A stretch of DNA of 64,000 nt from a virus. The DNA lies in the IMG/VR virus record IMGVR_UViG_3300045988_165212. One strand, given 5' to 3'. The notes beneath the pieces are model-generated. The model was not told the origin of the DNA. It did not search any database and saw only the letters and a program-made list of their open reading frames with translations. Shown piece by piece: positions 5,717 to 25,700 of the stretch. The stretch's first letter is position 1. Every line of letters starts with the position of its first letter. The translations under genes and the position numbers were made by a program.

Positions 5717-5747
5717 TTTGCAGATATATTCAAAATGCTTATCTTTG
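5717..5747 (+). promoter_or_regulatory. Early promoter/operator: 28-nt operator-like repeat overlapping a -7 box TATCTTTG (5740..5747)
   Basis: The sequence tttgcagatatattcaaaatgcttatct recurs at 5427..5454 with one mismatch. The TAnnTTTG match lies about 105 nt upstream of the first early gene. Confidence 0.5.
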
Positions 5748-5852
5748 CACCGTGTTACTAAAGGAACACAGCGCCAAAGATACAAAAAAGGCGTGAGAAA
5801 GACGAATTTTGCATCTTAAAAAGATAAAACAAGATTTGTATAACGATTAAAA

Positions 5853-6302: not shown

Positions 6303-6317
6303 TCAAGGAGGTGAGAA

Positions 6318-8315: not shown

Positions 8316-8359
8316 ACATCATCCAAACATCATTATAATAACGATTAAAGATTACAGCT

Positions 8360-9235
8360 ATGATAATAACAGAAGCTACAAAGAAAAAGATATTGGCAGC
8401 GATAGCAGCCAACAGGTCAAACTATCCAAGTGACGCAAAGCACGCAACCGCCATTGGTATCTCTACATCCATCTACAGCATGTTGAAGAATGGCCAGACA
8501 GAGAAGGCTCTGAGTGATGCAAACTGGCTGAGCATTGCAAGAAAGTTGAATGTAGCCTTGCGTGATGAAATGGAATGGAAGGCAGCAGCAACGGAAACCT
8601 TCAAGTATATCACCAAGCAGATAGAGTTTTGCCAAGGCTCTGGACAAAGCAGCATCCTTTGTGATATACCCAACATAGGTAAAACGTTCACGGCACGCTA
8701 TTATGTGCAAGGACACAAGAACGCTGTTTATATCGACTGTTCACAGGTGAAAACCAAATTGAAGTTAGTTCGCAAAATAGCATCTGAGTTTGGCGTGGAT
8801 AGCAAAGGACATTATGCTGATGTGTATGAAGACTTGGTTTATTACCTTCGTTCCATCGAACACCCTCTTATCATCCTTGATGAAGCTGGTGATTTGCAGT
8901 ATGAGGCATTCTTGGAACTCAAAGCCCTTTGGAATGCAACGGAACGCTGTTGTGCTTGGTACATGATGGGAGCGGACGGATTGAAGGAAAAAATCAACCG
9001 TTCCATTGAGTGCAAGAAAGTTGGTTATACAGAAATGCTGAGCCGTTACGGTGGCAGGTATTCCAAGGTTACACCAGACGATGGCAAAGAACGTGATAAG
9101 TTCTTGCGACATCAAGCGGAAGTCGTTGCAAAGGTGAACGCTCCTGAGGGTGCTGACATCGCAACCATCGTAAGAAAAACAAACGGCGGTTTGCGCCGTG
9201 TCTATACTGAGATTGAGAAACTGAAACTTGCATGA
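8360..9235 (+). CDS. MuB-like AAA+ ATPase / transposition target-DNA activator
   Basis: 291 aa. N-terminal HTH-like region, Walker A (PNIGKTF) and Walker B (LIILDEAGD). Located directly after the transposase. Confidence 0.75.
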   Translation: MIITEATKKKILAAIAANRSNYPSDAKHATAIGISTSIYSMLKNGQTEKALSDANWLSIARKLNVALRDEMEWKAAATETFKYITKQIEFCQGSGQSSILCDIPNIGKTFTARYYVQGHKNAVYIDCSQVKTKLKLVRKIASEFGVDSKGHYADVYEDLVYYLRSIEHPLIILDEAGDLQYEAFLELKALWNATERCCAWYMMGADGLKEKINRSIECKKVGYTEMLSRYGGRYSKVTPDDGKERDKFLRHQAEVVAKVNAPEGADIATIVRKTNGGLRRVYTEIEKLKLA

Positions 9236-9483
9236 TTATGGGAAATAAGATAACGGTAACGTTCAATGATGGAAGCCGTAAGGTATTGAAATCACCAGAC
9301 ACATTGCAAAGCATTGATGAAAAACGTGAAGCTCGTTTTGTCATGGACAATTTAAAAGTATGCAGAGGATGGTGTGATGGTGAGGTTGATGAAGATGGTA
9401 ACTTTAGTGTATTTAGAACCATTCATGGTGTATCACTTCCGTTTGAACATTTGATGGGTTGGTGTTATATAAAAGGTAGATAA
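9232..9483 (+). CDS. Hypothetical early protein (83 aa)
   Basis: ORF with ATGA overlap to the preceding gene. Confidence 0.5.
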   Translation: MIMGNKITVTFNDGSRKVLKSPDTLQSIDEKREARFVMDNLKVCRGWCDGEVDEDGNFSVFRTIHGVSLPFEHLMGWCYIKGR

Positions 9484-9485
9484 TT

Positions 9486-10109
9486 ATGGCAAAGCGAGCA
9501 TATAGCCCCAGGGATATAGCTGCAAAGACATATATCACCATTCCCTGGGGTGAGAAGTGGAGCAAGGTATTTGGATTCCCTTCCATAACAGAAACATGGT
9601 TTGTGTCGGGGTCGAGCGCAAGTGGAAAGAGCAGCTTTGTGATGCAGCTTGCCAAAGAACTTTGCTCGTATGGTGGCGTTCTTTACCTGAGTTATGAGGA
9701 AGGTGTGAGCAAGAGCTTTCAAGACCGCATCAACCGCTACAAGATGAATGAGGTGCAAGGCAAGTTTCGTGTGGCAACAGACGACACCCTTGACGATCTG
9801 AGGGCAAGGCTTAAAAAACGCAAGAGTGCCAAGTTTGTCATCATTGACAGCTTCCAATATTCAAATTGGAGCTATGAGCAAGCCAAGACGCTTGCAGATG
9901 ACTTCCCTCGAAAGTGCTTCATATTCATCAGCCAGGAATACAAGGGGCAACCGCTTGGCAAACCAGCAGCCCGATTGAAGTACATGGCAGGTATGAAGGT
10001 GAGAGTGCAAGGATATAAGGCATATTGCCAAGGTCGTGCTATTGGTGAGGCAGGTGAGGCATTCACCGTATGGGAGGATGGAGTAATACAAACAAGCAAC
10101 GAAACATAA
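9486..10109 (+). CDS. RecA-fold P-loop NTPase (Sak4/KaiC/DnaB-C-like)
   Basis: 207 aa. Walker A (GSSASGKSS) and Walker B (FVIIDSF). Confidence 0.6.
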   Translation: MAKRAYSPRDIAAKTYITIPWGEKWSKVFGFPSITETWFVSGSSASGKSSFVMQLAKELCSYGGVLYLSYEEGVSKSFQDRINRYKMNEVQGKFRVATDDTLDDLRARLKKRKSAKFVIIDSFQYSNWSYEQAKTLADDFPRKCFIFISQEYKGQPLGKPAARLKYMAGMKVRVQGYKAYCQGRAIGEAGEAFTVWEDGVIQTSNET

Positions 10110-10114
10110 GGCGT

Positions 10115-10339
10115 ATGGACAAATACAAGGACGGTGATACCATTTTCGTCTTGATGACGGCAGAGCAATGCAAGTCGGTTATGAGAGAATGGCTTGAACG
10201 TGATTACGAGTGCGACTTGAATGTAATGCGCTCACAGAAGAATAAAGGCAAGTTTGTACTGAAAACAAAAAGTCTGATGTGGGCAAACAGAATCATCCAG
10301 TGGCATGGATATGAAAAAGTAACTTATCAAATAATATAG
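10115..10339 (+). CDS. Hypothetical early protein (74 aa from the internal ATG)
   Basis: Track ORF is 10070..10339. I chose the ATG at 10115, just past the upstream stop. Confidence 0.45.
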   Translation: MDKYKDGDTIFVLMTAEQCKSVMREWLERDYECDLNVMRSQKNKGKFVLKTKSLMWANRIIQWHGYEKVTYQII

Positions 10340-10342
10340 CTT

Positions 10343-10519
10343 ATGGAAGAAGTGATTGAAAGCCTGGTGGCAATCATCAAGGACAAGACAAAGGATTTTA
10401 CCTACTTGGATCAAGAACAGATGTTCAGAGACTTGTCTGGCAGATTAAACGATATGTCGCTTGATGCCATGAAATGTGAGTATCTTGGTGAGAGAAAGGA
10501 GGTGGCAGACAATGAGTAA
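10343..10519 (+). CDS. Small early ORF not in the supplied track (58 aa, MEEVIESLVAIIKDK...)
   Basis: Hand-translated. It fills the 10340..10511 gap and overlaps the next start by 8 nt. It falls below the 60-aa track cutoff. Confidence 0.45.
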   Translation: MEEVIESLVAIIKDKTKDFTYLDQEQMFRDLSGRLNDMSLDAMKCEYLGERKEVADNE

Positions 10520-10751
10520 AGAACGAAGGGTGTTAGAACTGGTTTCACCATCATGCCAAGTCACCCATGAGAAAATAGTGAGTCAAGGGCATGAATGTGG
10601 ATATTGCCACGGCAATGGTTACTTCTGGGGACGTGACGCCAATTGGGAAAGCGTGAAAGTTCCTTGCCCTATATGCCAAGGCAAGAAAGAAATGAAAGCC
10701 ATCATTGAAATAACATGGCTACCAAACAATGAAAAGACAACTAAAAAATAA
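10512..10751 (+). CDS. Small zinc-ribbon protein with DnaJ-type CxxCxGxG motif
   Basis: CGYCHGNG ... CPICQGKK. Start moved to the ATG at 10512 (MSKERRV). Confidence 0.55.
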   Translation: MSKERRVLELVSPSCQVTHEKIVSQGHECGYCHGNGYFWGRDANWESVKVPCPICQGKKEMKAIIEITWLPNNEKTTKK

Positions 10752-10757
10752 ACGAAT

Positions 10758-11027
10758 ATGAGTAAAATCAGTAATTGGTTCCATGCTATGCGTGAGAACT
10801 GCAAGAAAAAGGCTGAACAGAAACGTGCAGCGCAAGTGAGAGAAGAAGCCAGGTCAAGACTACAGGCAAGAGAGTTCAATGGCAAGATATTCCTATGCTT
10901 CGACAATGTGCCAATACTGGAGACGGAAGACTTGACCCTTGGCATGGCTGCAAGCGTGAAAGAGGCACGCCAGTATTTTATGACTTACAGAGGTGTCGGC
11001 CATGAAGCAGCAAGTAACGAACTTTAG
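10758..11027 (+). CDS. Hypothetical early protein (89 aa)
   Basis: ORF in the operon, closely spaced to its neighbours. Confidence 0.5.
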   Translation: MSKISNWFHAMRENCKKKAEQKRAAQVREEARSRLQAREFNGKIFLCFDNVPILETEDLTLGMAASVKEARQYFMTYRGVGHEAASNEL

Positions 11028-11469
11028 CCGTTTCTTTGCCTCATTCAACGAACTGCCTTGCTATTGTGGCAGTCGTGAAGAGTTCAAGAAGGAAATTGTC
11101 AGTCAATACACTTTCGGACGCACAGAGAGCTTGAAGGAAATGACTTGGCAAGAGTACAATGATTGTTGTGACGGTCTGGAGAAACTGAGCGGTCGAAAAG
11201 ATAGATTGAAACGCAATCGCAGCATCTGCCTAAAGCTGATACAAGAGATTGGCGTGGACACAACCGACTGGCAGCGCATCAATGAGTTCTGCAAGCATCC
11301 TCGAATTTGCGGAAAGGAGTTTGCCAGAATCCGACTTGACGAAATGGAAGATTTCCAAAGAAAACTCAGAGCAATCAAGAAGAAAGGCGGTTTGAAAGAG
11401 AAAGAAGACGTGAACAATCCTGGCAGGATGGTGATGTATATCCCTTTGGATGGAATCCCTCATGCCTAA
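11002..11469 (+). CDS. GemA/Mu gp16-like regulatory protein (putative)
   Basis: About 155 aa. Pattern (..SLKEMTWQEY..LIQEIGVDTTDWQRINEF..) and position resemble the DUF1018/GemA family. Judged from memory only. Confidence 0.45.
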   Translation: MKQQVTNFSRFFASFNELPCYCGSREEFKKEIVSQYTFGRTESLKEMTWQEYNDCCDGLEKLSGRKDRLKRNRSICLKLIQEIGVDTTDWQRINEFCKHPRICGKEFARIRLDEMEDFQRKLRAIKKKGGLKEKEDVNNPGRMVMYIPLDGIPHA

Positions 11470-11498
11470 AAATACAACCCATTTTAAACGACAAGACA

Positions 11499-12233
11499 AT
11501 GGAAGAGAACAAGAAACAGACAGTAGAAATGACAGCGGAAGAGGCAGAAGCCTTCAAGCAGTTCCAAGAGAAGCAAGCCAAGGAAAAGGCTGCTAAGAAG
11601 CGCAAGGAAGACCGTGAGGCTTACGCCCAGTTGGTGGACAACGAGATTGAGAGTGCCATCCCCGAACTTCGCAGCCTGTCAGAACAGATGCTTGCAGTGA
11701 AGAGCAAGGTTTATGAGAACTTTGCGGAAGTCATCAACATCAAGGCAAACGTGTTGAAGCTGACCAAGGACACCCAGCGCACACACACCTTCACCCATTC
11801 AAACGGAAAGATGCGCCTCACGCTTGGTTACAACTGCATTGATGACTACCGTGACACAGTGAATGACGGCATTGCCATCGTCAAGCAGTACATCGAGAGC
11901 CTTGCAACCGACACCAAAAGCAAGGAACTTGTGGCAACCATCCTACAGCTATTGAGCCGTGACGGAACAGGCAACTTGAAGGCAAGCCGTGTGTTGCAGC
12001 TTCGCAAACTGGCAGACAAGAGCGACAACGACCAATTCAAGGAAGGTGTGCAAATCATCGAAGAGGCTTATCAGCCATCGCTCACCAAACAGTTCATCAG
12101 AGCTGAGTGGAAGGACGAACACAACAAGTGGCACATCATCCCATTGAGTGTGACAGATGTAGAACAAACAGAAACTAAACAAGAAGCCAATGAAGACAAC
12201 GACAACCAAGGCACCCAAGGTGGCACTGTGTAG
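11499..12233 (+). CDS. Hypothetical protein (244 aa), coiled-coil N-terminus
   Basis: Long ORF with good coding appearance and no diagnostic motif. Confidence 0.55.
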   Translation: MEENKKQTVEMTAEEAEAFKQFQEKQAKEKAAKKRKEDREAYAQLVDNEIESAIPELRSLSEQMLAVKSKVYENFAEVINIKANVLKLTKDTQRTHTFTHSNGKMRLTLGYNCIDDYRDTVNDGIAIVKQYIESLATDTKSKELVATILQLLSRDGTGNLKASRVLQLRKLADKSDNDQFKEGVQIIEEAYQPSLTKQFIRAEWKDEHNKWHIIPLSVTDVEQTETKQEANEDNDNQGTQGGTV

Positions 12234-12372
12234 AATGTGCCACGGCACTGGGAGAAAGGGCGAGGAAATTTGCCCACAATGTGAAGGAAGTGGACGTGTG
12301 ACAGTGAGCTGTGAAATGACACTTGACATCCGTCCATATCATCCAAAGGTTAAACATACAACAAACAATTAG
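12190..12372 (+). CDS. Mini zinc-ribbon protein (60 aa) with two CxxCxGxG motifs
   Basis: CRMCHGTG ... CPQCEGSG. Overlaps the end of the upstream gene. Confidence 0.5.
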   Translation: MKTTTTKAPKVALCRMCHGTGRKGEEICPQCEGSGRVTVSCEMTLDIRPYHPKVKHTTNN

Positions 12373-12376
12373 CCCC

Positions 12377-12628
12377 ATGGGAAAGCGACGCGGACTAAGT
12401 TATCAGAAACGTGTTGCTGACATCAACAGGATATATGACCGGCATATCAAGGACGGTGTTCCAAACCGTGAGATATGGCGCAGGTTCATATATCCTGAGT
12501 ATGCTATCAGTGAGCGTCAATTTTACAATATATTGAAAGCGTCTGCTGAATCAAAGAATGAGATTCCAGCAGACGCTCAACCGTATCTTGATTTTTGGAA
12601 TGATGAGCAAGGAAAAGACTATTATTAA
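12377..12628 (+). CDS. Hypothetical small basic protein (possible middle/late regulator by position)
   Basis: ATG at 12377 (MGKRRGLSYQ) lies 5 nt after the upstream stop. The functional guess rests on position only. Confidence 0.45.
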   Translation: MGKRRGLSYQKRVADINRIYDRHIKDGVPNREIWRRFIYPEYAISERQFYNILKASAESKNEIPADAQPYLDFWNDEQGKDYY

Positions 12629-13175
12629 GAGGATTCTGAATGACATCCGCGTTGACCTAAGTGACGAGTTTGACCAGAACTTTGAGCGAGAGGCATTTTT
12701 CAGCGAGGCATGGGAACGGCACAGAAGCCCCCTTCGACCAGGTGGGCATATTCTTGTTGATACAGGCACGCTGAGGAGAAGCGTCAGAAGCGAGATGAAG
12801 GAAACGAGCATCCGCTTCTTCACTGATTTGCCATACGCCGACATTCACAATGAAGGCGGTGAGATAGTGGTGACAAAACGAATGAAAGGCTATTTCTGGC
12901 ACAAGTACATGGATGCCGCAGGTGCATTGACCTTTGCAAGGCGCAAGGACGGCACGCAGCGCAAGGACAAAAAGACACGGCACATCAGTGACGTGGCAGA
13001 GTTCTGGAAGTTCATGGCCTTGAAGAAGGAAGGCACGACAATCAAGATACCAAAGAGGCAGTTTCTGGGTTTGTCACCAGAGGTGGAAAAGGCAGTTACG
13101 GACATCATCGAGGATAATTTGCAAGAATACCTCGGAAAGGAAATGGAACATTTTGAAAAACGATTGAAGAAATGA
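12600..13175 (+). CDS. Mu G-like virion morphogenesis protein
   Basis: LPYADIHNEGG motif, typical of the Mu gpG / Phage_tail_S family. Start chosen at MMSKEK. Confidence 0.6.
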   Translation: MMSKEKTIIKRILNDIRVDLSDEFDQNFEREAFFSEAWERHRSPLRPGGHILVDTGTLRRSVRSEMKETSIRFFTDLPYADIHNEGGEIVVTKRMKGYFWHKYMDAAGALTFARRKDGTQRKDKKTRHISDVAEFWKFMALKKEGTTIKIPKRQFLGLSPEVEKAVTDIIEDNLQEYLGKEMEHFEKRLKK

Positions 13176-13615
13176 GAAAAGAGATTTACAAGATGCTTTG
13201 TGAGCGTCTGGGCAATATACCAGAAATCAAGTATATTGACCTTTGGAACCACAATGTGGAGTTCATTGAACAAGAAGACAACTGGGAACGTCCAGCGGTG
13301 TTTGTGGAGCTTTGCCCAATCAACTGGGAGGCTACGGTGGCAGGTATGCGCTATGTGACAGAAGCGAAAGTGAACTTGCACGTGGTGACAGACTGGTTGG
13401 GCAGCAGTGCAGCCAACAGCGACCAAAGAGAAGAGAGTTTGACCGTGTTTGACCTCTTGGAAAAGATTCACACAGCCCTGGCAGATGTGGACGGTGAACA
13501 TTTCAAGGAGTTCGACATCAGCAATTCGACAACCAACCACAACCATGAGGATATTTTGGAAAACATTGAAACTTATAGTTATGTGGGTTACAGAGAACTT
13601 GGCCAGTCCAAGTAA
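13172..13615 (+). CDS. Hypothetical virion-associated protein (147 aa)
   Basis: ATGA-coupled to the Mu G-like gene. Confidence 0.5.
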   Translation: MRKEIYKMLCERLGNIPEIKYIDLWNHNVEFIEQEDNWERPAVFVELCPINWEATVAGMRYVTEAKVNLHVVTDWLGSSAANSDQREESLTVFDLLEKIHTALADVDGEHFKEFDISNSTTNHNHEDILENIETYSYVGYRELGQSK

Positions 13616-13623
13616 ATATAATT

Positions 13624-13661
13624 AAAGCATCCGATGCCTTGACAGCTTCGGATGCTTTTTT
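13624..13661. terminator. Bidirectional intrinsic terminator (11-bp stem aaagcatccga/tcggatgcttt)
   Basis: Perfect stem with an A-run before and a T-run after. It lies between the convergent genes 13172..13615 and 13688..14170. Confidence 0.75.
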
Positions 13662-13687
13662 AATGTCCTTCGGATGTCGTTTGACCC

Positions 13688-14170
13688 TTACTGATACAAG
13701 CTCAAATCAAAAGCATCCTTCTTCTTCCATCCCTCAGCCAAGGTGTTTTGCACATATTCGGTGGCTTTCAGATAAAAGTCGGCGAGTTCTTCAAGTGTGT
13801 CAAACGTATGGTATGACGGTTCATCCTCAGTTCCAAACTTGAACGTTACTGGCAGCGTCTTTCCTTCCGTTTGCACGGCAAGGTCATAAGCAGCCTTATA
13901 GTTGAACTGGTTTTCAGTGGATAGCCACACTGCCTGACCCTTATATGTGAAGCCAGAAATGATGGCTTGGTCAGTCTGTTCGTTGTACCAGTCCAAGACG
14001 GTTCGCTTGATGTCATCCACAGAAGGCTTGCCATTGGTAAACTCTGCCTCCATGTAGTTGGCCGAACCGTCCTCTTTAACTATGACATCCCAACGGATGC
14101 GCCATTTGTTCTTGACGGGGTTCACGCATTCAAGCAGTTTCACCACCGCACTTCCTTCTGTTCGTTTCAT
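13688..14170 (-). CDS. DUF4376-like protein translationally coupled to the DGR RT
   Basis: 160 aa, acidic. The segment ISGFTYKGQAVWLSTENQFNYKAA..LPVTFKFGTEDE..LEELADF resembles the DUF4376 / tail-fibre-associated family. The RT stop and this start overlap (TAATG). Confidence 0.55.
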   Translation of the reverse strand: MKRTEGSAVVKLLECVNPVKNKWRIRWDVIVKEDGSANYMEAEFTNGKPSVDDIKRTVLDWYNEQTDQAIISGFTYKGQAVWLSTENQFNYKAAYDLAVQTEGKTLPVTFKFGTEDEPSYHTFDTLEELADFYLKATEYVQNTLAEGWKKKDAFDLSLYQ

Positions 14171-15471
14171 TAGCTAAATACGTATTTGGTTCTACCTTTG
14201 CCAAATGTCTCTGTTCTGATAGTTGTCTCAAAAGGCAAGCCATCTGGCAGTTCACTAATCTGTTGGAGAATATTCTTCATTTCCTCCGAATTGGTGAAAA
14301 ACTTCTTTGCCTCACCGTTCTGTTCGATGGAGACAATGCAGCGGTCTTCGCCTTGCTCAGTCTTGATGCCAAGCTCGAAGTCCTTCACGATGATTGGTAA
14401 GTTCACTAATTCCCTGATGCTTACCACTGACCCAGGGAAACGCTTCTTGCCATCCGCTGGCTTATAAGAAACGTTCAAATCTTTAAATGATCTCATTGTT
14501 TTGCCTGTTAATTTATTAAACAATCTATTACAGTCGGCGTGCTTTGTCATGCCATAGAAACTGGCAATCAGCTCACGCCTTCTTTTCCTCGATTTAACCT
14601 CGTGCATTTTTCGGGCAAACTTCTGCTTGATACGCTTGCGTATCGCCACATGGTCGGGATATATGACATATCCCAAGAAGTCAATGCCCTCATCCACTGG
14701 GAACACCCTTTCATTTGGCTTTATCTCCAAATCAATCTGGTTCACCTGAGAGTGGATAATTTCACGAATCACCCATAATTCCGCTTTCGTTTTACCAAGC
14801 ACAAGGCCGTCATCACAATATCTGTAGAAATGAGCGACCCCACACTTATCTTTCAAATAGTGGTCTAAAAATACAGACAACAACAAGTTGCCAGTGGCTT
14901 GCGAGCTTCTTAGTCCAAAGCTGATGCCTCTGTCCAGCATGGTAACAAAGGATTCCAACATAACGAGCAGCTTCTGGTCTTTGAACACACGGCGGTAGCA
15001 CCACATGGCAAAGTCTTGACGAACATTCTCATAGAAATGTCTGATGTCAAACTTGTAGGCATATAGCGTGCCTTCTGGGTCATGCTGCATATCTTGACGA
15101 ATTACCTTCATAAGGTCGTGCGTGCCACGTTCCTTGATGGATGCTGCTGTTGTGCGTATGTAACGTCTTTGCAGATGTCTGTCCACCACGGACATTATAG
15201 CATGGACACCTATGCGGTCTTTCATCGAAAGAATCTGCAAGTTCCTTTCTTTGCCGTATTCGTGGATTGTGCGCTCACGGTAGCCACTCACACGGAAAGA
15301 GCCATTGGCAATTTGCTCTGTTAGCTCCTTAATCACCTCTTCACGATGCGCAAGCAAGTAGCGTCCCTGACGTGAGCGTTTCCGCTTCTTGCCACGGAGA
15401 ACTTCATCAAACGACTCTGACATATTGGAGTAGTCAATGATTTCTTCTATGATGTAACCTTCTCTACGCAT
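14170..15471 (-). CDS. DGR-type reverse transcriptase with ~110-aa C-terminal extension
   Basis: 433 aa. RT motifs YAYKFDIRHFYENV, FGLRSSQ (DGR-type GxxxSQ), YCDDG (YxDD), IDFLGYVIY. Adjacent to an AAY-rich template-like repeat. Confidence 0.9.
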   Translation of the reverse strand: MRREGYIIEEIIDYSNMSESFDEVLRGKKRKRSRQGRYLLAHREEVIKELTEQIANGSFRVSGYRERTIHEYGKERNLQILSMKDRIGVHAIMSVVDRHLQRRYIRTTAASIKERGTHDLMKVIRQDMQHDPEGTLYAYKFDIRHFYENVRQDFAMWCYRRVFKDQKLLVMLESFVTMLDRGISFGLRSSQATGNLLLSVFLDHYLKDKCGVAHFYRYCDDGLVLGKTKAELWVIREIIHSQVNQIDLEIKPNERVFPVDEGIDFLGYVIYPDHVAIRKRIKQKFARKMHEVKSRKRRRELIASFYGMTKHADCNRLFNKLTGKTMRSFKDLNVSYKPADGKKRFPGSVVSIRELVNLPIIVKDFELGIKTEQGEDRCIVSIEQNGEAKKFFTNSEEMKNILQQISELPDGLPFETTIRTETFGKGRTKYVFS

Positions 15472-15621
15472 TGTTAATAATTTTATGGCCTTTTGGCCTT
15501 CCTGTCTCTGGGCCTGACTTCTTCGAGCCGTAAGAACGGCCTACCAAACTCCACCCAACACTTGATTTTTCAGCTTTCCCATATTGGTAGTTTGCTGAGG
15601 TTCGTTTCCCTCGGCTCCATG
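15472..15621 (-). other. 150-nt spacer between the TR/VR-like element and the RT (copy in the left arm)
   Basis: Non-coding, with small hairpins. Exact mirror of 42504..42653. Confidence 0.6.
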
Positions 15622-15788
15622 TTAGGAATCACGTCCCTGGTATGGTAGGCCGATTGATGGTGTAATCAGTTTGTCCAGGCGTGAGCCGACATTCGCATTC
15701 GCATTCGCTGCATCGTTATTCGCATTCGCATTCACGACACCGCCATTCGCATTCGCGTTGTTGTACCCACGATAAACCACACGGCTTA
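15622..15788 (-). repeat. DGR variable-repeat position at the 3' end of the fibre gene; the sequence is identical to the TR-like copy at 42337..42503
   Basis: Encodes SRVVYRGYNNANANGGVVNANANNDAANANANVGSRL...*. The tract 15691..15762 has 11 AAY codons in 24. Confidence 0.75.
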
Positions 15789-18700
15789 CTGATGTGCTTA
15801 TCCAATATATATCACTATAATATGTACTGGACGAACCGCTGACATTACCAACAGGCACAACATCCATGTATTTGCCATGATAAACGGCTGTTACCCAGTT
15901 TCCGCTGTTAGTCGTACCTTTTACCATTCGTGTGCTTCCGTCTGGCATCCAAATGCGCCACTTGCCAGCATTGCCACTGTCATTTGGCAAATCCACATTG
16001 TCCATCATATCGTACTTGTTGCCGAATATGTCTTCATAACCCAAACAACAAGTATTATTTACTTGCTTGACATCTACGGCTCCATATTCACCATTAACCT
16101 TGTACCAAGCGTATTGGTTCACCAAGTTGTCAATGAGCGAATTTGTGACATTTGCGTTGATTGCCTTTGCAGCCTTGTAGCCAATGGTGTCAGTCATACC
16201 GTATGCCATTGTTCCGCCTGTAGTTCTCATGTTGGTGTGCTGACCTGCTCCACATTGATCTTGGGCATCCCTACGACCATACTTGGCAAAGAACAAGTTG
16301 GCAATGGCACTGTGCATACTTGCGTCAATCTGCTGCATACCACGTTGAACACTGTAATAATGGAAGTCGCTCCATGCCATGTTTGCTGTGGTGCTGCCAC
16401 CAGTAACCACAGCCCTAAGTTTATCACCCACAACGGAACTTCCAACAGTTGCACACAAACAATCATCCTCATTGACCCAATCGGGTTCCATATCCTCAAT
16501 CTTGTCGCTGTTGCTCAATACCACCTTGTCAAACTCAGCGGTCTGCAATACAGTAAAGTTGAGGTATGTCGCATCAGAAGGAATGTCGGAAATCAAGTAC
16601 ATACCTGCCTCAAACTTATTGCTAAGTGTTGGCACAACGATGGTTTTGACTACCTTTCCCGAATCATCCGTGAAAATGCTTCCAACAAGATTGCTGCCTG
16701 GCACAGAAGGAAAACGAACACGCTTATAGCCTGATACAGACACACGACAAACGGCATAGCTGCTATCTGCTGTATATGAGTTTTGCAAGGTGTTCTTGCC
16801 ACTCATTACCTTATATCCTTTGCGATAATTGCCACCATTTTGTATTTCACTCAGCAAAATGACTGTTGCTTTCGGAACAGATGGCATGGCAACATTACTA
16901 CTGTAGCAGCTATAATGCTTACCATTCAGGTAGTCATTGATTCCCTTGATCCATCTGTGAGGCTCGAACATCATAATGTCGCCCTCTGAGCCATCCAACT
17001 TTGCTGCGGTGCAATTAGCCACCTCTGCTGCATCTGCATAATAATTGGAGTTCTCATCATGCAATGGATATATGGTGACAATGCCATCAAGATTGTTTGC
17101 AATGGTATCAACACCAGCTATCTTGATGTTTCTTGTTGTAGGCTTCTTTGTAACCTTGGCAAGAACACGATGACGCTTCTTCAAAAGTGCCGTGATATGA
17201 CCACTTGGCACATAGTCATTGCCATACTTATAGCCAGTCTTATTGTCAAGGTTGGACACATTGGCATCATCCGCAACAGTGTCATCAAACTCAATCATCG
17301 TGTATTCTGGTTGAATGATGTTCAGCTCTGGGAAATGTTCTTGCCACTTCTTGTATTCTTCATCAGCTATGTATGAAGTGAGGCGATAAGTGCCAACCAG
17401 ACGGCATGAATCCACATTGCCACCGTTTTCATCAACACCACCCATCGAAAGCATATTCTTTAGCATGGTTCCGTCACCTTCCATGTCTATGCCTGTAATT
17501 CGTAGATACTTCACTTTGCTGCATCTGCTGTAAAGTGTCTGCCAATTTATCAATGGGCAATTATCCACAACCAGACGTGTGACATTTGAGGTTCCTTCAA
17601 GTGTGAGACCACTGTTTGTGAGCTTGCTCAGATAGCGGAGTTCCAAGGTTTGCAGCGTTGAAGGCAACACAACTGTCTTCAATGGTGAACCTTGTGCGAA
17701 GCTCACGCCTGTCAAAGCACTCTTCCCTGCACGGAATGTTTCCAGCTTGGTGTTTGCGCTCAAATCAATGCCTGTGAAGCTGGTGGATTTCAAACCAGTC
17801 ATATTGAGCGTGCGAAGGTTCTTGCATCCGTTCACAAGCAATGCGTTGAGCGTTGTCTGTGTCGCAGCACAACTTACATCAAGCGTGCGAAGTGCCGAAC
17901 AGTTGTTGAGGTTCAACGTCTGCAAGATGGCATGGCTCACGTCCGTAAGGTCAAGCCCCATGATGCGACTTGCACCATACACGTATTGTGGATCATTCAC
18001 AATCAAGTCGGTGTCAAGTGTCAGTTGCACCATACTGCCTGTGTCTTCTGCCAGGACTGCACTCTGATGCGGTGTGCCACTCGTATAGCCATAACCGAAA
18101 TAATAACGCTCACTTGACGTTATCTTTATCTTTCGGTTGTCGCTACCGAACTTATAGCCAAAGTAAGCAGCAAAGCTATCCTTGCGGTATGTACCACACA
18201 CATATTGGCTATCCAGCAGCGCAAAACGGTTTTGGATGGTGAACGTGCGGTGTGCGTAACGGCTTCCCTGCAAGGCATAGAGGTAATTGTAATAATTCGT
18301 TCCATCCGCTGATGTCACGCCTTCCGTCAAAGGAGTGATATACTTGTATATGCCATCCTTGTTGTAGATTCGTTCACACCAGTTGCCCATCTGTTCCACA
18401 TTGAACATATTAAGCACATATTCGAGGCTCATGTTTGAGCGAATCTTGTCAGCCACCTCTCTCAATTTGTCTGGGCATCCTCTGACAAGTTCCCAAAGAA
18501 CGCTGTCATGTCCAGCAAAGGCATAGGAGCCAATGCTTTCATCCAAGGTTTCCCATGTAATGGTATAGTCATACTTCAAGACGGAATCATTGCGCTCACC
18601 AAAGATGGTGTCCATGTCGTATGGAATGAACTGCCAGTGAAGACCGTCCCATGTGACAAGCATCATGTTCTTGGCACGGTTATCCACCGCCATGAAATAG

Positions 18701-21700
18701 TCCGTTATCACATACCATGCAAATGGGCTGTCATTGTCAAAGTAATCATTGTACTCTGCATAGAACTTGCTTGGATTTCCCTTGCATGAGAGAATCCACG
18801 ACCAAAGACGCTTGACCGCTGCCTTGTCTTCCTCATTGGCGGTTTCCCAAGTGTCATCAGCCTTGAAACGGAACTCCAGGGCATCGGCAAATGAAGTCAT
18901 GTCAGCCGTACCAAACAAGCAAAGTGTCTCAGAGTTGTTCAAGAACTCCAAGCAGATACATTTGTTTCGCTGTCCGTTCAAAGCTGCTGCATCATTGAAG
19001 CCCTCAATGCCCTCAAAGCCATAGATGGCTGCACTGCCACTTTTCTCATTGTTGAAATTGTACTTGCCAAGGTAGATGTTTTCACCAGTATTGTCATTGT
19101 CATAGAACAAATCAATAGGGAAACCATCCACACCAATACGGACATCATAGTTGCCTGTATATGTCTTTTGTGGTGGTGTGAGCCATCCGCAACGCTTCCA
19201 GATGTCATTGACTATCTTCACGGCTCCAGTGTTATGAGTGGAAGAGGAATCTGAGAAATCCGCTTTCAAACAGAAAATATTTATTGGACGTGCGCCTGGC
19301 TTGAATGAATAGGTACATTCAGGAACTTCCACACCATTCACATACAGCTTGGTTCCATACTTGCTTGAACGGCTGAAATACAAGCGGTAGTTCTTTCTTG
19401 GATAAGTGGTTGATGATGTTCCCTGTATGCGCAATCCGCACTGGTATATGATGAAATCATATTCCTTGCCATAGGCAGAATAGAAATAGATGTCAACAGG
19501 CACTTCAAACTTCTTGTTGTTGGTCTGATTCACAAGATTCACATCGCCCACAATGCGCATCACGCTCTTGCCCTTGGCTCTGAGCTTATCCATATCAACG
19601 TCCGTACCTTCATCATTCATCACCTGATTGTTCTCGAACAGCACAACCATTTCATCAGTAGTAGGACGATCCACCATGTAGTTGGCAAGTTCTTCATCAT
19701 CGCCAAGCGCACGGTTATAGACACGGATGTTTCTCAGTTCCACATCTGCACTATCGCTTCCAACCTTGATGTTGACAGGTGTCGATTGCAAAAGACTGTC
19801 GGTGTTGGCATACTGCTTCGCACCGCAAAGAATACCGTTTACATAGAGTTCCAACAGACGGTTGCCAGACTTCTCTTGCACGACAAAGGCAATTTTCAAG
19901 TTCAAGCCACTCGCAAAAAGCGTATTGACCTCCGTTCCTGCCCCTGTTCTCATTATAGCCTCTTGTGTGGTCAGCTTGAAGCCGACATTGCCATTCATGC
20001 AATCAATGACAACACCGTTTCTGTCTGTCACATTGGAACACATCAGTTCCATTTCATAAGTGGCTCCATTGGTTGTGGCATCGCTCTTGAATGGTGTGTA
20101 ACCGATTTCGATGTTTGCCCCATTGGTCAGTTTCAAAGCGTCACCAGTCCATCCGTTGCTTTTCCAGTCAAAGCCATTGAACGTGGTTCTAATGCCGTTA
20201 TAAGTCCATTCGGACGGTGTACTTTCACTGTTGCTTCTGCCTGATGCTGTAAGTTTCAGTTGCAAGCCAGATGTTGTCTCATTCAGGTCAATGCCACTTT
20301 CATTCACATCAATGTAGAAATTGTATTCAGTGACACCACACTTGAATTTCATTTGGTTTGTTCCCTTTTCAAGGAATCGGTTTGTGTAAATCTGTGTGGT
20401 TCTTGGCACACTTACATTCTGCGTCTTGATGTCATTGCGATATACAGACACATCCGCTGGTGTCGCTGTTGGGTCATAGGCAACGAACTCAAATTTTACT
20501 TGCTCATATTGTCCAGCTTCCAAAGTTGGTGCCAAATGGTCTTTTGTAAAGATACGACCATCCGAGTGCGTCATCATGGTTCCGATAAAAGGCGAATTGC
20601 TGCCTGTTTTCAGAATATCCATATAGATGCTATCGCTCTTCAAGGTCAAGTCTGCACTTGCCTCCATTTCTGCCACCATTTGGATGGTGTGCCTTCCCAC
20701 ACTGAATGCGGTCATTGACAACGAGAAACTGCTGTTGGTCGTTCCGCTTCGTGTTATGGTGTGGGCATTCTGCTGTTTGCCATCCACATAAAGCGTCACC
20801 ACCTTGGTTCCCGAGCCACTTATTGCGTATGGAATACTGATGGTCTCGTTTGTCCCATAGCCACCCTTTGCAATGGCTTCTGCAAGGTTGAAACTGCTTG
20901 CCAGGGATAACGTCACGACCTTTACGCTCACATAGCTCTGTTTCATCTGCTTCTTGCCAGTTGTCGGATCAGTAGTGGATGCTTTTACATATATGTCGGT
21001 TGTACCAACCTGCAAGTATTTGGAGAGGTCAAGCGTATAACTTCCCTTGCTCACATCCTCGATGGTGTCATGGTACATGGTGATTGAACCACGTTTCATT
21101 TCAATCTCAATGGTTGCTTTCTGGCCTGTTGACGTACCTTTCTCATCACCGCTGCTATATTGGTGGTCGTAAGAGTATGTGAGTTGCGCACTGCCACCTT
21201 CCTTGATGACACTGTTGTTGACGGATGCGCCCAATACAATCTTTGTGGTGGAAGTTTCACCACCACCGCCACCTTTTCCTGCTGGTATGTCCAAGCCCAC
21301 GACTTCCGCACCACTCTTGTTGGTTAAGGTAAGATGTACCGTGCTTTCATCCTCACTAAGTTCAGCATTGCCACCAAAGATGGTGTTTGCCTCCACCTCA
21401 TTGAGCTTCGCCGTCACTGCTGAGTTCTGCACAGGGTTCGTGCTGTTTGCGTCAAGACTTTCATCAACCTCAGTTTCCTTGATGGTCACATTCACGTTGC
21501 CAGTGGAATCAGGTGTTTGCTTCGTGCCATTTACCGTTATACTCTTGACAGTCCCTGCACCGCCGAAATCTTCCCAACTTGAAATTGATTCCCAGCTTGA
21601 AAGATTCGTGCCAATGAATTGCTTGGTCTCCCACTTGCCTTGTGATACCTCATAAGTTATGCAACGTCCCTTGGCACGCTGCTTTTCCTCCACTGCTTTG

Positions 21701-22446
21701 ATGGCAGTGGCAAGCGTATAGTAACCGTTTTCAAGCGGAACTTGCTCAGTCACATTGTACGTGTTACCGCCACCGCTGCCACTGATTTCAACAAGGTCAT
21801 TTTCTTCATCGCTCCAAACATAGAGAACATCACCACAAAGATAAACCTTGTTTTTCTGTATGCTTGAAACATCCTCACCACGGTACAATTCCGCATTGGG
21901 AACACCTTCAACAGCCCAGTTGCCGTAATACTTGCCACCCACATAATAGGCAAATTGCTTTTGGCTCTGCACATAGACGATTACACCGCCCTTGGCAATG
22001 GATGATTGAAGTTGTATTGTGGCAGATTCCACCATATAGGAAAAACGTGCCGTTGCACCATTGAAAGCAGCCTTGGCTACATTCTCGTATTTAGCCACAA
22101 CCTCAGATGCAGCAGCCACAGCACTATTAGCTTCTTCCGCTGCATCAGAAGCTGCTGACGCGGCTGCATTGGCTGCACTTGCAGCAGAATTTGCGACCTG
22201 TGTGATAGAATACACGGTTTGCGCTGCTTCCGTTGCTCGATTTGCTGCACTTACTGCATTTGCCACAGCATCCTCCGCTGGTTTGGTCAGCAGCTTTATT
22301 GGCGCACTCACTACTTCCTCACCTCGTAAGGCTGGAAGGCTCATAATACCGTCCAAGCTATCTACTTGCTCCAGTTCATCTACACCTTGCGATTCAGCTT
22401 TCATCGCATTGAGTAGTTCTTGCTTCTCTTCGTTTGTCAATGCCAT
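15622..22446 (-). CDS. Giant tail fibre / receptor-binding protein (2274 aa), the DGR target
   Basis: Ala-rich coiled-coil N-terminus, Ig-like repeats, LamG-like segment (~19700..20250), CotH-like domain (GTSSTTYPRKNYRLYF..PYDMDTIFG, ~18400..19450), LRRs (~17470..17960), and a C-type-lectin/FGE-like C-terminus carrying the AAY tract. Confidence 0.85.
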   Translation of the reverse strand: MALTNEEKQELLNAMKAESQGVDELEQVDSLDGIMSLPALRGEEVVSAPIKLLTKPAEDAVANAVSAANRATEAAQTVYSITQVANSAASAANAAASAASDAAEEANSAVAAASEVVAKYENVAKAAFNGATARFSYMVESATIQLQSSIAKGGVIVYVQSQKQFAYYVGGKYYGNWAVEGVPNAELYRGEDVSSIQKNKVYLCGDVLYVWSDEENDLVEISGSGGGNTYNVTEQVPLENGYYTLATAIKAVEEKQRAKGRCITYEVSQGKWETKQFIGTNLSSWESISSWEDFGGAGTVKSITVNGTKQTPDSTGNVNVTIKETEVDESLDANSTNPVQNSAVTAKLNEVEANTIFGGNAELSEDESTVHLTLTNKSGAEVVGLDIPAGKGGGGGETSTTKIVLGASVNNSVIKEGGSAQLTYSYDHQYSSGDEKGTSTGQKATIEIEMKRGSITMYHDTIEDVSKGSYTLDLSKYLQVGTTDIYVKASTTDPTTGKKQMKQSYVSVKVVTLSLASSFNLAEAIAKGGYGTNETISIPYAISGSGTKVVTLYVDGKQQNAHTITRSGTTNSSFSLSMTAFSVGRHTIQMVAEMEASADLTLKSDSIYMDILKTGSNSPFIGTMMTHSDGRIFTKDHLAPTLEAGQYEQVKFEFVAYDPTATPADVSVYRNDIKTQNVSVPRTTQIYTNRFLEKGTNQMKFKCGVTEYNFYIDVNESGIDLNETTSGLQLKLTASGRSNSESTPSEWTYNGIRTTFNGFDWKSNGWTGDALKLTNGANIEIGYTPFKSDATTNGATYEMELMCSNVTDRNGVVIDCMNGNVGFKLTTQEAIMRTGAGTEVNTLFASGLNLKIAFVVQEKSGNRLLELYVNGILCGAKQYANTDSLLQSTPVNIKVGSDSADVELRNIRVYNRALGDDEELANYMVDRPTTDEMVVLFENNQVMNDEGTDVDMDKLRAKGKSVMRIVGDVNLVNQTNNKKFEVPVDIYFYSAYGKEYDFIIYQCGLRIQGTSSTTYPRKNYRLYFSRSSKYGTKLYVNGVEVPECTYSFKPGARPINIFCLKADFSDSSSTHNTGAVKIVNDIWKRCGWLTPPQKTYTGNYDVRIGVDGFPIDLFYDNDNTGENIYLGKYNFNNEKSGSAAIYGFEGIEGFNDAAALNGQRNKCICLEFLNNSETLCLFGTADMTSFADALEFRFKADDTWETANEEDKAAVKRLWSWILSCKGNPSKFYAEYNDYFDNDSPFAWYVITDYFMAVDNRAKNMMLVTWDGLHWQFIPYDMDTIFGERNDSVLKYDYTITWETLDESIGSYAFAGHDSVLWELVRGCPDKLREVADKIRSNMSLEYVLNMFNVEQMGNWCERIYNKDGIYKYITPLTEGVTSADGTNYYNYLYALQGSRYAHRTFTIQNRFALLDSQYVCGTYRKDSFAAYFGYKFGSDNRKIKITSSERYYFGYGYTSGTPHQSAVLAEDTGSMVQLTLDTDLIVNDPQYVYGASRIMGLDLTDVSHAILQTLNLNNCSALRTLDVSCAATQTTLNALLVNGCKNLRTLNMTGLKSTSFTGIDLSANTKLETFRAGKSALTGVSFAQGSPLKTVVLPSTLQTLELRYLSKLTNSGLTLEGTSNVTRLVVDNCPLINWQTLYSRCSKVKYLRITGIDMEGDGTMLKNMLSMGGVDENGGNVDSCRLVGTYRLTSYIADEEYKKWQEHFPELNIIQPEYTMIEFDDTVADDANVSNLDNKTGYKYGNDYVPSGHITALLKKRHRVLAKVTKKPTTRNIKIAGVDTIANNLDGIVTIYPLHDENSNYYADAAEVANCTAAKLDGSEGDIMMFEPHRWIKGINDYLNGKHYSCYSSNVAMPSVPKATVILLSEIQNGGNYRKGYKVMSGKNTLQNSYTADSSYAVCRVSVSGYKRVRFPSVPGSNLVGSIFTDDSGKVVKTIVVPTLSNKFEAGMYLISDIPSDATYLNFTVLQTAEFDKVVLSNSDKIEDMEPDWVNEDDCLCATVGSSVVGDKLRAVVTGGSTTANMAWSDFHYYSVQRGMQQIDASMHSAIANLFFAKYGRRDAQDQCGAGQHTNMRTTGGTMAYGMTDTIGYKAAKAINANVTNSLIDNLVNQYAWYKVNGEYGAVDVKQVNNTCCLGYEDIFGNKYDMMDNVDLPNDSGNAGKWRIWMPDGSTRMVKGTTNSGNWVTAVYHGKYMDVVPVGNVSGSSSTYYSDIYWISTSVSRVVYRGYNNANANGGVVNANANNDAANANANVGSRLDKLITPSIGLPYQGRDS

Positions 22447-22448
22447 AG

Positions 22449-22733
22449 TTATTCGTTTTTATCCGTTTGACAATTTAGTTGCTCATTCAAAGCGTCTATG
22501 ATACTTGGAAAACAATAGTGTTCCACAAGTTCTTTTATGAGATTGACTTCATCATCGGAAAATTCCGTTGCACCATTGCTCTCATATATTTTGAAAGCCA
22601 AATGATGTGCTTTTATTCCCATGGAACGAGTGTAAACCAAATTTGCAATGGTTTCACGAGCGTCACCTGTTTGCTTTCTTTTTTTACTAATCCCTACAGG
22701 AATAGTGAAATTTTGAAAATCTATTTTTGCCAT
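22449..22733 (-). CDS. Hypothetical tail-module protein (94 aa)
   Basis: ORF packed tightly between the Tal-like and fibre genes. Confidence 0.5.
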   Translation of the reverse strand: MAKIDFQNFTIPVGISKKRKQTGDARETIANLVYTRSMGIKAHHLAFKIYESNGATEFSDDEVNLIKELVEHYCFPSIIDALNEQLNCQTDKNE

Positions 22734-22743
22734 ATCTTGTTTT

Positions 22744-25700
22744 TTAACGGTTTATGTCTAATACTTGACCATAATAGGAGCCACTAACATAAGTAAGGGC
22801 TATGCTTACACTGTCACCTTTTCCTAAGCAAAGTTGGTCTGTGTTTCTGTTATCATCACGCCAATGTCCTCCATCATGGTTTAGCAAATCGCCATCACCA
22901 TTTATTTTAACATAAACATTGTTAGAACTCTTTGAGCTATTTATGATTTTAACAGGGACACAAAAGGTTTTACTTTCTTCTATTCCAAGCTGCAATCGTA
23001 TTTCATCCAATTTTGGCAAGGAAACCCATGTGTTACCAGAAGAATTATTAAAAGCGGTCAATGTCGTACCATGGTCGAGTGTTATGATGTAAGCTGTACC
23101 TGCTTTTGTTGTATTGATAATTCTACCAATTTCTAAGAATCCTCCATCACATACAATAGCTCCTTTTGTATAAAGTGCAACATCACGACTCAAGACATTA
23201 TCACTTATTATTTTCACTGCTGGCAAATAACAGTCACCAGGATCAGGATTCATCTGCCGATAAAAATAACCAGCACAATTGCACCAGGAAGTTGATTCTG
23301 TCTGTTGTGGGTCTGCACCATTGCCAATAGCAACCTTTATGTTAGCCACATCACCTGGCTTGAATACTCCTACTTGTGATTGTAACTTAATCAGTCCTGG
23401 TCTAATTGCCGCTAAATCTTGTTTATAACTATTATCTGTCCATTTTGCTGGGTCGCCATAATACAAGCCTTGGTTGTCTATCAGGAAATATCCTATTTTG
23501 CCTTCATAAGCCTCAATTTTACCTTTTATCTTGGCATTTTGTGCCTCAATGCTACCATCCTCCAATATTTTGAAATTTTCGTTGGCAGTCACAAGTCCTT
23601 CCAGCTTGATGTTGTCGGCACAGATATGCACACCGCTTTCCAAATTTCCATTTTCATCTTTTGTGACGAATGCGGAAATGTCTGCCTGTTTGACAATGTT
23701 CTTGTCTTCATCTACCGCTGTGGCAAACATACCAGCAAAAGCCTCGATGCTGACATAATTGCCAATTTTCTCATTCAATCCCATCATGTCAGAATTGTAC
23801 TGTTGCAACCATTCTGCATAGTCTGTAGCTGTCACAAGTCCAGCTTGGTTCTTTAGACTTCCGTCCTCATTGAACCTTTGGCTGATAAGTTCATTATACT
23901 TTGCTGTTGTTATGATGTCGCTTTCAGACAAAACATTGCCGTCCTTATCAAAATTTTGGGCTGCAATCTTTACAAGTGTTTCACTTTGTTCAAACAGCGT
24001 CTTATACTTGTATGCCAATGATTCCACACGGTCAGTTGAAAGAATGAGCATATACAGATAGATGTCGCCTGTGAAGCTCAGTTTGAAGTCACCAGTACCA
24101 TTCCAAAGGCCATTGCAAGAATATTGCTTGTAGCCATCAGTCTCAGCAATTTCCTCTTCAACGTGCATGGAGTTGAAATTTTCAAAGCCAGTCTTATCAA
24201 CATTCTCAAACTCCACGGTCAATGTGCCAGCCTTGGCACATCTGTAGAAGAACGTGAGGAAAACAGGAATTGCCTCTTTGGTTCCGTCTTCTCTTGTGGT
24301 CATTGGTGGAATGCTCTGCAAATTGGTGTTCTTCTGGCTGATGTACTTGTTTCTGATGCGTACAACAGTTCTGCCCATGTCCTTACAGACACTTGCGCTG
24401 TTGCCACGTTTGGACAAAGCCTTTCCGTTAGTCCATATCCAACGATTGCCAGCGAGGAAGAAAACCGTTTCGTTCTCTGTAGCCCATTTGTCCATGCCAT
24501 CAGAAAAGGCTGGATTGTTCAAATAGCCTCGATCACTTGCAAAGTCCTGTCTCAGTCCCTCAACAGCGGATTCAATCTTTCCTTCCGTTATCTCGAACTT
24601 GGTCTTGATGTCTTCACCAGTCACCAAGAGAAATGTACCACGTAAGTAGGCATTATCTGAATAAAGACCGTTTCCATGTGGTTGGTTGTTGGACGGAAAC
24701 CAATCATCCTTGATTCCGTCAAGATTGCCAAGTCTTGCACGCAAGGCATTGGTGAAACTCTTGCCATTCACACCATCCATGACATCAATCCTGGGCTGTC
24801 CGTCTTCTGTCGCTGATATGAGTATGAGGTTTTGGCGATTGCTGTTTGTGGTGTTGCCCATCAATACACATTCATCGCCTTCTGCTGGTTCCGTCTTGTC
24901 AAACTCTTCCTTGGCTACAAGAATGCCATCACCGTTCACACCTGCGACCTCGACCCAATAACTTTTCAGATTTGCACCCGTGAAGGTTTGACATCGCATC
25001 AAGTCATGTGCAACAAAAGTGTTTTCTTGCTCGAAGCGAATGAGGTAATAACCATCTTGCTCTTCAACACTCTTTATCTTGCCATTGGCTGCACTTACGC
25101 AAATCTGACCGCCGACACTCCTAATCTTATTTATCAAGAGTTCAAAGATGGTCATTATCTGGCGCACGGTCAGTTTGTCAACAGTAAGATTGGAAAGACC
25201 ACTTTCATCAATCCAAAGCTGCCATCCCTCACCATTGAAGCCATCAACAAACTTGGCACTTCCCAAAAATTGGCGCACCACCATTGTCAGCAGTTCACCA
25301 TTGCCTTTGCCATCCAAGTGACCACCTGCAACGCCCTCCACAAAGTCACCGAGGTCAATACCCTCATCAAAGATGATTTTCTTTTTCGCTCGATCAATTT
25401 TCTTCTTACTAAGAAATTCCCTTTGGCTTCTTCGAGCTGAGAACAGATTTGTGTCAGTTGGCAAAGTGTTGTCCCATGTACGGATGATGTCTGGCAAACT
25501 TCCAGATGTGCGCTCACGTGTATAGTTCTTGATGTTGACCAAGCTGTCATTCACCTGATCCAATGTGCCACTTTGGAGTGCATCACTGATTTCCAAGTCC
25601 ACTTGTGAAGGCAAGACAACCTTTCTTGTTATCTTGGTTATTCGGCTGCTTCTATACCCAGTATCAAGGAAAAACTTCTCACTTTCAAGCCTTACCCTAC

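Follow-up and report, generated by a model that had tools for sequence, protein, structure and literature searches.

A tail-fibre VR identical to its DGR template repeat in a Mu-like prophage contig is very probably the product of a chimeric assembly

The DGR of Hankyphage, with its invariant template repeat (TR) and a VR that varies at Asn codons, has been described previously (Benler et al. 2018, PMC6199706; PMC12135933), and its activity in culture has been reported (PMC12135933). By analogy with this phage and with the Bordetella phage BPP-1, a DGR of the kind considered here would act through a TR RNA that is reverse-transcribed with errors opposite adenines. The cDNA would then replace the VR at the 3′ end of the fibre gene and recode its AAY codons.

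The window, i.e. the whole stretch of DNA that was analysed (64,000 nt, IMG/VR record IMGVR_UViG_3300045988_165212), contains a prophage whose reverse transcriptase (RT) was found by protein-level search to be 81.6% identical to the RT of Bacteroides phage p00/jmh72_hp (Hankyphage). Neither the TR/RT region nor the fibre 3′ region gave a megablast match among GenBank phages. The phage is a Mu-like relative of Hankyphage that does not belong to the same species, and its DGR is of an already known kind. The first-pass annotation had noticed that the putative VR at the end of a 2274-aa fibre ORF is identical to the TR, and it had offered three readings: the true VR has been replaced by the TR in this assembly, the VR is naive and the DGR has not acted, or heterogeneity at the VR broke the assembly.

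Sequence comparison within the window confirmed that 15622..15788 is the exact reverse complement of 42337..42503, with the inner boundary that the annotation gave. The identity of this 167-nt repeat stands, but its extent does not: it is the tip of a 15.8-kb repeat, of which only 114 nt are true TR/VR homology. In a whole-window repeat search, 1..15788 was the reverse complement of 42337..58124 with 0 mismatches in 15,788 nt. This perfect inverted repeat touches the left edge of the window (position 1), so that its length is a lower bound and may in truth be greater. At its inner boundary, 15789 and 42336 are mismatched and similarity is gone beyond 15791; this edge coincides with the 5′ edge of the TR/VR homology. 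The 15.8-kb block holds the TR, a spacer, the RT gene, Mu-like prophage early genes, the left end of the prophage and some 4 kb of host DNA, and chance is of no concern for an exact match of this size. The host DNA, which bears a GH2/malectin hydrolase gene, comprises 54105-58124 and its mirror, 1-4027. Arm A, the left copy, is the mirror of arm B, the right copy, and abuts the 3′ end of the 2274-aa fibre ORF (15622..22446, minus strand). The window is laid out as follows.

1..15788, unstranded: arm A, taken to be a spurious inverted copy of 42337..58124 (0 mismatches), with host X, prophage left end, early genes, DUF4376, RT, spacer and TR; it includes host DNA that belongs across the prophage
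about 4024-4027, unstranded: mirror of the left-end junction in arm A, with host homology from 4027
15792..42333, unstranded: unique segment M, 26.5 kb, with fibre body, tail, head and lysis genes on the minus strand, TerS/TerL, portal and MuF on the plus strand, and the non-coding region U; locus L123 of an independent assembly (see below) matches window 15762-36970 exactly
37130-38689, plus strand: TerL
39346-40674, plus strand: Mu portal (Portal_Mu)
40689-42140, plus strand: Mu F (Phage_Mu_F)
42337..58124, unstranded: arm B, the genuine arm, which runs MuF-U-TR-spacer-RT-DUF4376 and then through early genes and left end to host X
54098..54104, unstranded: prophage left end/host junction; homology to 10 other lysogens stops at 54101-54104, and host homology starts at 54098
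54105..64000, unstranded: host X flank, with the 120-aa remainder of an interrupted gene, a 380-aa protein, a GH2/malectin hydrolase and hipA

In arm B, an RT gene adjoins an invariant template repeat, as is characteristic of a DGR. The annotation had rightly taken the element for a DGR template repeat: the RT gene begins 204 nt downstream of it, and the TR sequence is identical in nine of 10 RT-linked loci. The parts of this locus are given below.

42141..42336, plus strand: non-coding region U, AT-rich, 196 nt, upstream of the TR
42337..42450, plus strand: template repeat (TR), 114 nt, 27 adenines after the first 3 nt
42451..42653, plus strand: TR 3′ flank, the spacer between TR and RT, 203 nt, kept downstream of all TRs
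42654..43955, plus strand: DGR reverse transcriptase, 433 aa (RVT_1, E = 1.1e-12), starting 204 nt after the TR
43955..44437, plus strand: DUF4376 protein, 160 aa, whose homologue is labelled 'Avd' in the Hankyphage record PV107408.1

U contains TAACTTTG at 42304-42311, 26 nt upstream of the TR. This motif fits the Bacteroidota -7 promoter consensus, TAnnTTTG, and it is a candidate promoter element or start for the TR RNA. Judging from BPP-1, the spacer 42451..42653 is probably part of the DGR RNA. The classical Avd family (Pfam) was not detected, and the 160-aa protein after the RT matches DUF4376 only. Beyond DUF4376, the opposite strand encodes a Phage_tail_S protein, DUF3164, an AAA_22 protein, a 665-aa protein and an S24 repressor. 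The 665-aa protein occupies the position of a MuA-like transposase, and the counterpart of the AAA_22 protein is annotated as MuB-like in PV107408.1.

Public assemblies contain the exact RT protein very often. In 10/10 independent contigs it was found in the order TerS, TerL, portal, MuF, about 500 nt, RT, DUF4376, early genes and repressor, and the host gene after the repressor differs in each of them; some are bacterial contigs of 240-357 kb. Since this order recurs in 10 independent contigs, arm B is the real TR locus. Ten fibre-side contigs were located through the 94-aa gene that precedes the fibre. In nine of these the fibre measures 2278-2279 aa, and in the remaining one it was called as two genes. 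All 10 carry different host genes within 100-400 nt after the fibre, and never the RT.

The 3′ part of the fibre ORF in the window divides into three segments.

15789..22446, minus strand: genuine part of the tail-fibre gene, the DGR target (chimeric ORF of 2274 aa here; full gene 2279 aa elsewhere)
15675..15788, minus strand: putative 'VR', a second TR copy fused to the fibre body and identical to the TR (0/114 differences)
15622..15674, minus strand: copy of the TR-specific 3′ flank, 53 nt, read through as 17 spurious codons and a stop (DKLITPSIGLPYQGRDS*)

The tract 15691..15762 encodes NNANANGGVVNANANNDAANANAN, in which 11 of the 24 codons are Asn; this translation agrees with the AAY count of the annotation. 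The attribution of all 54 last codons to the fibre did not hold, however. The 53 nt at 15622..15674 are TR-type flank, which no genuine VR has, and the final 17 residues (DKLITPSIGLPYQGRDS*) are read-through into it. In the 2279-aa fibre, 22 codons lie between the end of a genuine VR and the stop, and the true C-terminus is AFRGQIVWAQSVSAFKSISEVA*. After this VR tail follow about 250 nt of Mu-like end sequence closing in ...TTTTGCGGATTATA. The C-type-lectin context that the annotation had matched to the fibre end found no confirmation in sequence searches, as the genuine fibre C-terminus gave neither a Pfam match nor a PDB sequence match. A motif search detected the VR-tail and right-end motifs nowhere in the window. 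The conserved 20-mer of the repeat, GCCGTGTGGTTTATCGTGGG, occurs just twice in it; there is no third, adenine-substituted copy, in agreement with the annotation.

Repeat loci were collected via this conserved 20-mer in the fetched loci, IMG/VR and GTDB genomes, and they were sorted by their flanks. Across 10 TR loci and more than 30 VR loci, the true TR/VR homology is 114 nt long (42337..42450, mirror 15675..15788) and ends in ...GTCGGCTCACGCCTGG. Downstream of this shared end, TRs read ACAAACTGATTACACC... and VRs read CCTTCC(G/A)CGG.... The sorting gave four classes.

36 loci: U on the 5′ side and spacer on the 3′ side (TR loci)
31 loci: fibre body on the 5′ side and CCTTCC(G/A)CGG... (VR tail) on the 3′ side (VR loci)
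1 locus: fibre body on the 5′ side and spacer on the 3′ side (the window)
1 locus: U on the 5′ side and VR tail on the 3′ side (L025)

With the exception of the window and a cut contig end (L083), all loci anchored in the fibre body have an A-substituted VR and the VR-specific tail. When 26 unique VRs were compared with the matching TR allele, 292/682 A sites (43%) were changed, as against 9/2204 non-A sites (0.4%). Genuine VRs thus differ from the TR almost only at adenines, as the annotation had stated for a used VR. Within the window this adenine-confined difference is absent, the two copies being identical and the second having TR flanks; it is present in the same phage assembled elsewhere (11/11 at A; 26 unique VRs). 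Across this phage lineage the DGR is real, active and marked by the classical adenine signature. In a related prophage (L037 ~1280-1400; DCJC01000038.1, Prevotellaceae UBA1710), the VR interior is stored as a run of N, which makes this VR unreadable.

The absence of any difference from the TR (0/114) is what one would see if the true VR were equal to the TR, i.e. if it were naive or had been reset, the DGR not having acted yet or the last homing having been free of errors. This second reading of the annotation has almost no probability left and is refuted. On the 3′ side of a naive VR one should find the flank that is specific to VRs (CCTTCCGCGG...), a tail of 22 codons, the right end and host Y, all of which are missing. 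Instead, the 3′ flank in the window is the TR spacer, followed by the RT and 15.6 kb of further TR-side sequence, and it is this type of 3′ flank that excludes a naive VR. Moreover, genuine VRs have on average 43% of their A sites changed, and the same lysogen carries 11 A substitutions.

That lysogen is found in contig k119_275841 (67,910 nt) of ENA ERZ27229799, which has both the 120-aa junction protein and the 1408-aa tail protein in exact form. Over 19,890 nt, its left part (L119) matches window 44111-64000 without a single mismatch (100.000% identity). The fibre part (L123) equals window 36970..15675 except at 11 sites, all of which lie in 15692-15761; at 11/11 of these, a TR adenine in the window corresponds to G or T in L123. 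Past CTGG, L123 runs through the VR tail with its stop codon and the right end, ...TTTTGCGGATTATA, into TAATGAAACTTGCTATGAACAAGAC... (host Y). The order fibre, VR, VR tail was also seen in 5/5 informative contigs with an identical 1408-aa neighbour protein. It is all but proven that the real VR of this prophage is diversified and lies at the right end.

In uninfected relatives, the empty site (L111) has genes for an Rhs toxin and for Imm-NTF2-2 immunity, then a 134-aa gene, a 380-aa gene and a GH2 gene. Host X and host Y are the two halves of the one 134-aa gene. The TAATGAAACTTGCTATGAACAAGAC... sequence is the 5′ half of this interrupted gene, with Imm-NTF2-2 next to it, and is absent from the window; a truncated 120-aa host ORF (54111-54473) adjoins the left end. 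Window homology to L111 begins at L111 position 7646, and the part upstream of it (host Y) is missing: the window has host X twice, inverted, and host Y zero times. The host sequence ATTA(T) was seen at both prophage junctions (54098-54111, mirror 4024-4027; L123 ~21640-21660), which is consistent with a short target duplication of the Mu type.

The prophage interrupts the 134-aa host gene beside an Rhs toxin/Imm-NTF2-2 immunity locus. Elsewhere in the host flank, two direct repeats of 123 nt (59805-59927 and 61729-61851, 93% identical) flank hipA (59982-61235) and a small HTH gene. The related host contig L111 has a single copy of the 123-nt repeat and lacks the intervening ~1.9 kb, which suggests insertion or deletion of a toxin-antitoxin cassette.

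Taken as given, the window shows exactly the arrangement of a genuine chromosomal inverted duplication, in which the left half of the prophage and host X would truly be present twice and would flank the structural module. We regard such a duplication as highly improbable. Its arms would have to be 100.000% identical over 15.8 kb, and its boundary lies at the sole internal repeat of the phage rather than at the end of a transposon. Both the right end and host Y are lacking, although the empty site and the same lysogen elsewhere place them there. Furthermore, no other assembly shows this structure, and the same lysogen exists without the duplication. Two other candidates were rejected. Aberrant DGR retrohoming with an over-long cDNA does not apply to a block of 15.8 kb that holds host DNA and lies 3′ of the TR, outside the cDNA, and for intramolecular replicative transposition of the Mu type the boundary of the duplication is in the wrong place, at the TR/VR and not at the phage end.

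The true layout of the lysogen is shown to be host Y, right end, VR tail, VR, fibre, tail and head genes, TerL, portal and MuF, continuing after MuF with U, TR, spacer, RT, DUF4376, early genes, left end and host X. In it, the 114-nt repeats VR and TR are inverted relative to each other, at a distance of 26.5 kb. The VR-TR identity of the window is very probably an assembly chimera at the DGR repeat, with inverted re-traversal of the TR side. The place of the switch is given by one further feature.

15762..15788, minus strand: switch interval, 27 nt, TAAGCCGTGTGGTTTATCGTGGGTACA, common to the VR and the TR of the lysogen

On one side it is limited by the point where fibre and U diverge (15789), on the other by the first A-to-G substitution (15761). 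Since the VR and TR contexts share exactly 27 nt, the join is located inside 15762-15788. The contig left the fibre gene, switched from VR to TR within these 27 nt and re-walked the TR side in reverse. Through the switch it lost the real VR, the final 22 fibre codons, the right end and host Y, and it gained an exact inverted duplication of at least 15.8 kb. The flagged TR-identical VR is the TR itself in a chimeric contig and no biological feature of the phage. The first reading of the annotation, replacement of the true VR by the TR in the assembly, is the one that was borne out: the same lysogen has a diversified VR and a VR tail elsewhere.

Heterogeneity at the VR, the third reading, is the most likely cause of the chimera. 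The DGR would diversify the VR in the sampled population, or coverage there would be low. Many VR variants, each at low depth, as an active DGR should produce them, would yield weak fibre-to-VR edges in the assembly graph, and these would be pruned. Because VR and TR are mutually inverted, both ends of segment M enter the same node of the bidirected graph. The ends of M would then be linked solely to the invariant TR path, and the sole remaining walk would be TR-side′ - M - TR-side. The structure of the window matches this walk exactly. The assembler, the coverage and the pruning step are inferred. Public contigs often break in or beside this repeat: the sorting by flanks also gave loci cut off at a contig end, the SPAdes contig NODE_51 is 26,544 nt long, roughly the length of M, and scaffold_594 stops 17 nt past the VR. 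Such frequent breaks fit pruned edges as the cause.

Some observations count against an artefact. A stretch of 27 shared nt is short for a mis-join at a final k of 119-141, a pair of reciprocal junctions in another contig, described below, would also result from a real inversion, and the fibre-to-TR-flank join, when scanned for, was found zero times elsewhere in IMG/VR and zero times in JGI metagenome contigs. The error is therefore rare and not systematic. An exact look-up of the chimeric 2274-aa protein gave no match on record, and a literature search on misassembly caused by DGRs found nothing specific.

The contig in question, IMG/VR 3300045988_151757, contains both reciprocal junctions. 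At the first (L025 2027-2440), MuF and U lead into a VR with heavy A substitution, behind which come the VR tail and the right end. At the second (L083 11195-11309), the fibre body runs into TR-type sequence without substitutions, of which at least 75 nt are present before the contig ends. The short switch interval is identical in this contig and in the window. These junctions could come from a real inversion isomer: recombination between TR and VR in the 27-nt stretch would have flipped the 26.5-kb module in a subpopulation, which would create true fibre-TR-RT and MuF-U-VR-right end junctions, and the assembler would have merged the isomers and thereby produced the duplicated arms. We consider this unlikely. 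The picture in contig 151757 also results if M is wrongly oriented in the graph, and an inversion cannot by itself duplicate 15.8 kb or delete host Y, so that an assembly error would be needed anyway. The Segatella copri isolates HDE04 and HDD05, the two that were checked for junction type, are unflipped, as is the same lysogen in k119_275841, and no flipped junctions occur in the other 30-plus loci anchored in the fibre or in the 36 anchored in U. Around 27 nt lies the lower limit for homologous recombination, for which the stretch is only marginal. Finally, the flipped form truncates the fibre and parts the TR from its promoter-side context. If the inversion were true, the DGR's own repeats would form a switch that disables the fibre, and contig 3300045988_151757 would be a second instance of it.

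Three of the 36 TR loci, with U on one side and spacer and RT on the other, are adenine-substituted instead of having the canonical TR. They are L028 ~6799-6912 (NZ_CP152346.1, the complete chromosome of Segatella copri HDE04), L046 (IMGVR_UViG_3300045988_135853) and L059 (IMGVR_UViG_3300045988_100013). The TR substitutions in L046 and L059 are a subset of those in the contig's own VR and could reflect an assembly mosaic or gene conversion. In HDE04 they are no subset, as A persists in the VR at sites where the 'TR' carries T or G; either self-homing or conversion into the TR could really have taken place, or polishing could have introduced an error.

Read literally, the window would put three artefacts on record: an unmutated or inactive DGR target, a 2274-aa fibre with 17 non-existent residues, and a prophage bearing a 15.8-kb inverted repeat. 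Virus catalogues and DGR finders should be wary here, since a remote, inverted TR/VR pair with a hypervariable VR can make an assembler insert the TR. Such a substitution re-traverses single-copy DNA, inflates the length of the contig and duplicates host DNA, and a TR/VR pair with zero mismatches is a reason to check how far the identity runs. The underlying biology, an active tail-fibre DGR of the Hankyphage type with named relatives in Segatella/Prevotella, is already known; residual interest lies in the possible TR/VR-mediated flip, the A-substituted TR loci and the relocated cassette.

As a graph problem, the window resembles the LSC-IR-SSC-IR graphs of plastids, whose topology leads assemblers to output IR-SSC-IR, and contigs with spurious long inverted terminal duplications. 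Both ends of M enter the same sequence in opposite orientation, the contig emits sequence twice as a perfect inverted repeat, and the orientation of M is ambiguous and flipped in contig 151757. In contrast to plastids, the true repeat here is 114 nt long and imperfect, with 27 nt exact, and the long arms are single-copy DNA walked twice and no biological repeats.

As a DGR, the locus shares several features with that of the Bordetella phage BPP-1 (mtd-avd-TR-brt), the paradigm of these elements: adenine-specific mutagenesis of AAY codons, a VR at the 3′ end of a gene for a receptor-binding protein, and an invariant TR adjoining the RT. TR and VR also share a GC-rich 3′ end and then diverge like IMH/IMH*, and by this analogy the VR may carry an IMH and the TR an IMH*, a pair that would make transfer one-way. 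Unlike in BPP-1, no classical Avd (Pfam) was detected, the target fibre exceeds 2000 aa, and TR and VR lie far apart on opposite strands.

The closest resemblance is to Hankyphage. Both are Mu-like transposable prophages of gut Bacteroidales with MuA/MuB-like genes, an S24/CI-type repressor, a Mu portal, Mu F, a tape measure, a very long fibre with a 3′ VR (2279 aa here; 6.7 kb in jmh72_hp), an AAY-rich TR and, behind the RT, a DUF4376 protein. In both, moreover, the VR varies among lysogens in an adenine-specific way (as PMC6199706 and PMC12135933 report). The Mu-type transposition module, the varied host sites, the apparent short target duplication, the Mu-like head genes and the fibre DGR place the phage in the Hankyphage lineage. 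With p00 itself there is no nucleotide-level match and no colinear VR-TR-RT cassette, which sets the two apart as species. The named relatives found here are in Segatella copri and Prevotella, and not in Bacteroides or Phocaeicola; a literature search on Hankyphage relatives in copri found nothing specific. The genome is ~38.7 kb long, compared to 42.8 kb for Hankyphage. The main difference lies in the arrangement of the cassette. In Hankyphage (PV107408.1, L110 38051-40518), fibre, VR, hp41, TR, RT and 'Avd' are colinear at the right end, and the starts of VR and TR are ~370 nt apart; in several IMG/VR relatives, VR and TR are likewise ~340 nt apart. In the lineage of the window (42337-44437), TR, RT and DUF4376 lie between MuF and the neck/early genes, on the opposite strand and 26.5 kb from the VR, which is left alone at the right end. 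Remote targets on the opposite strand are known for DGRs generally.
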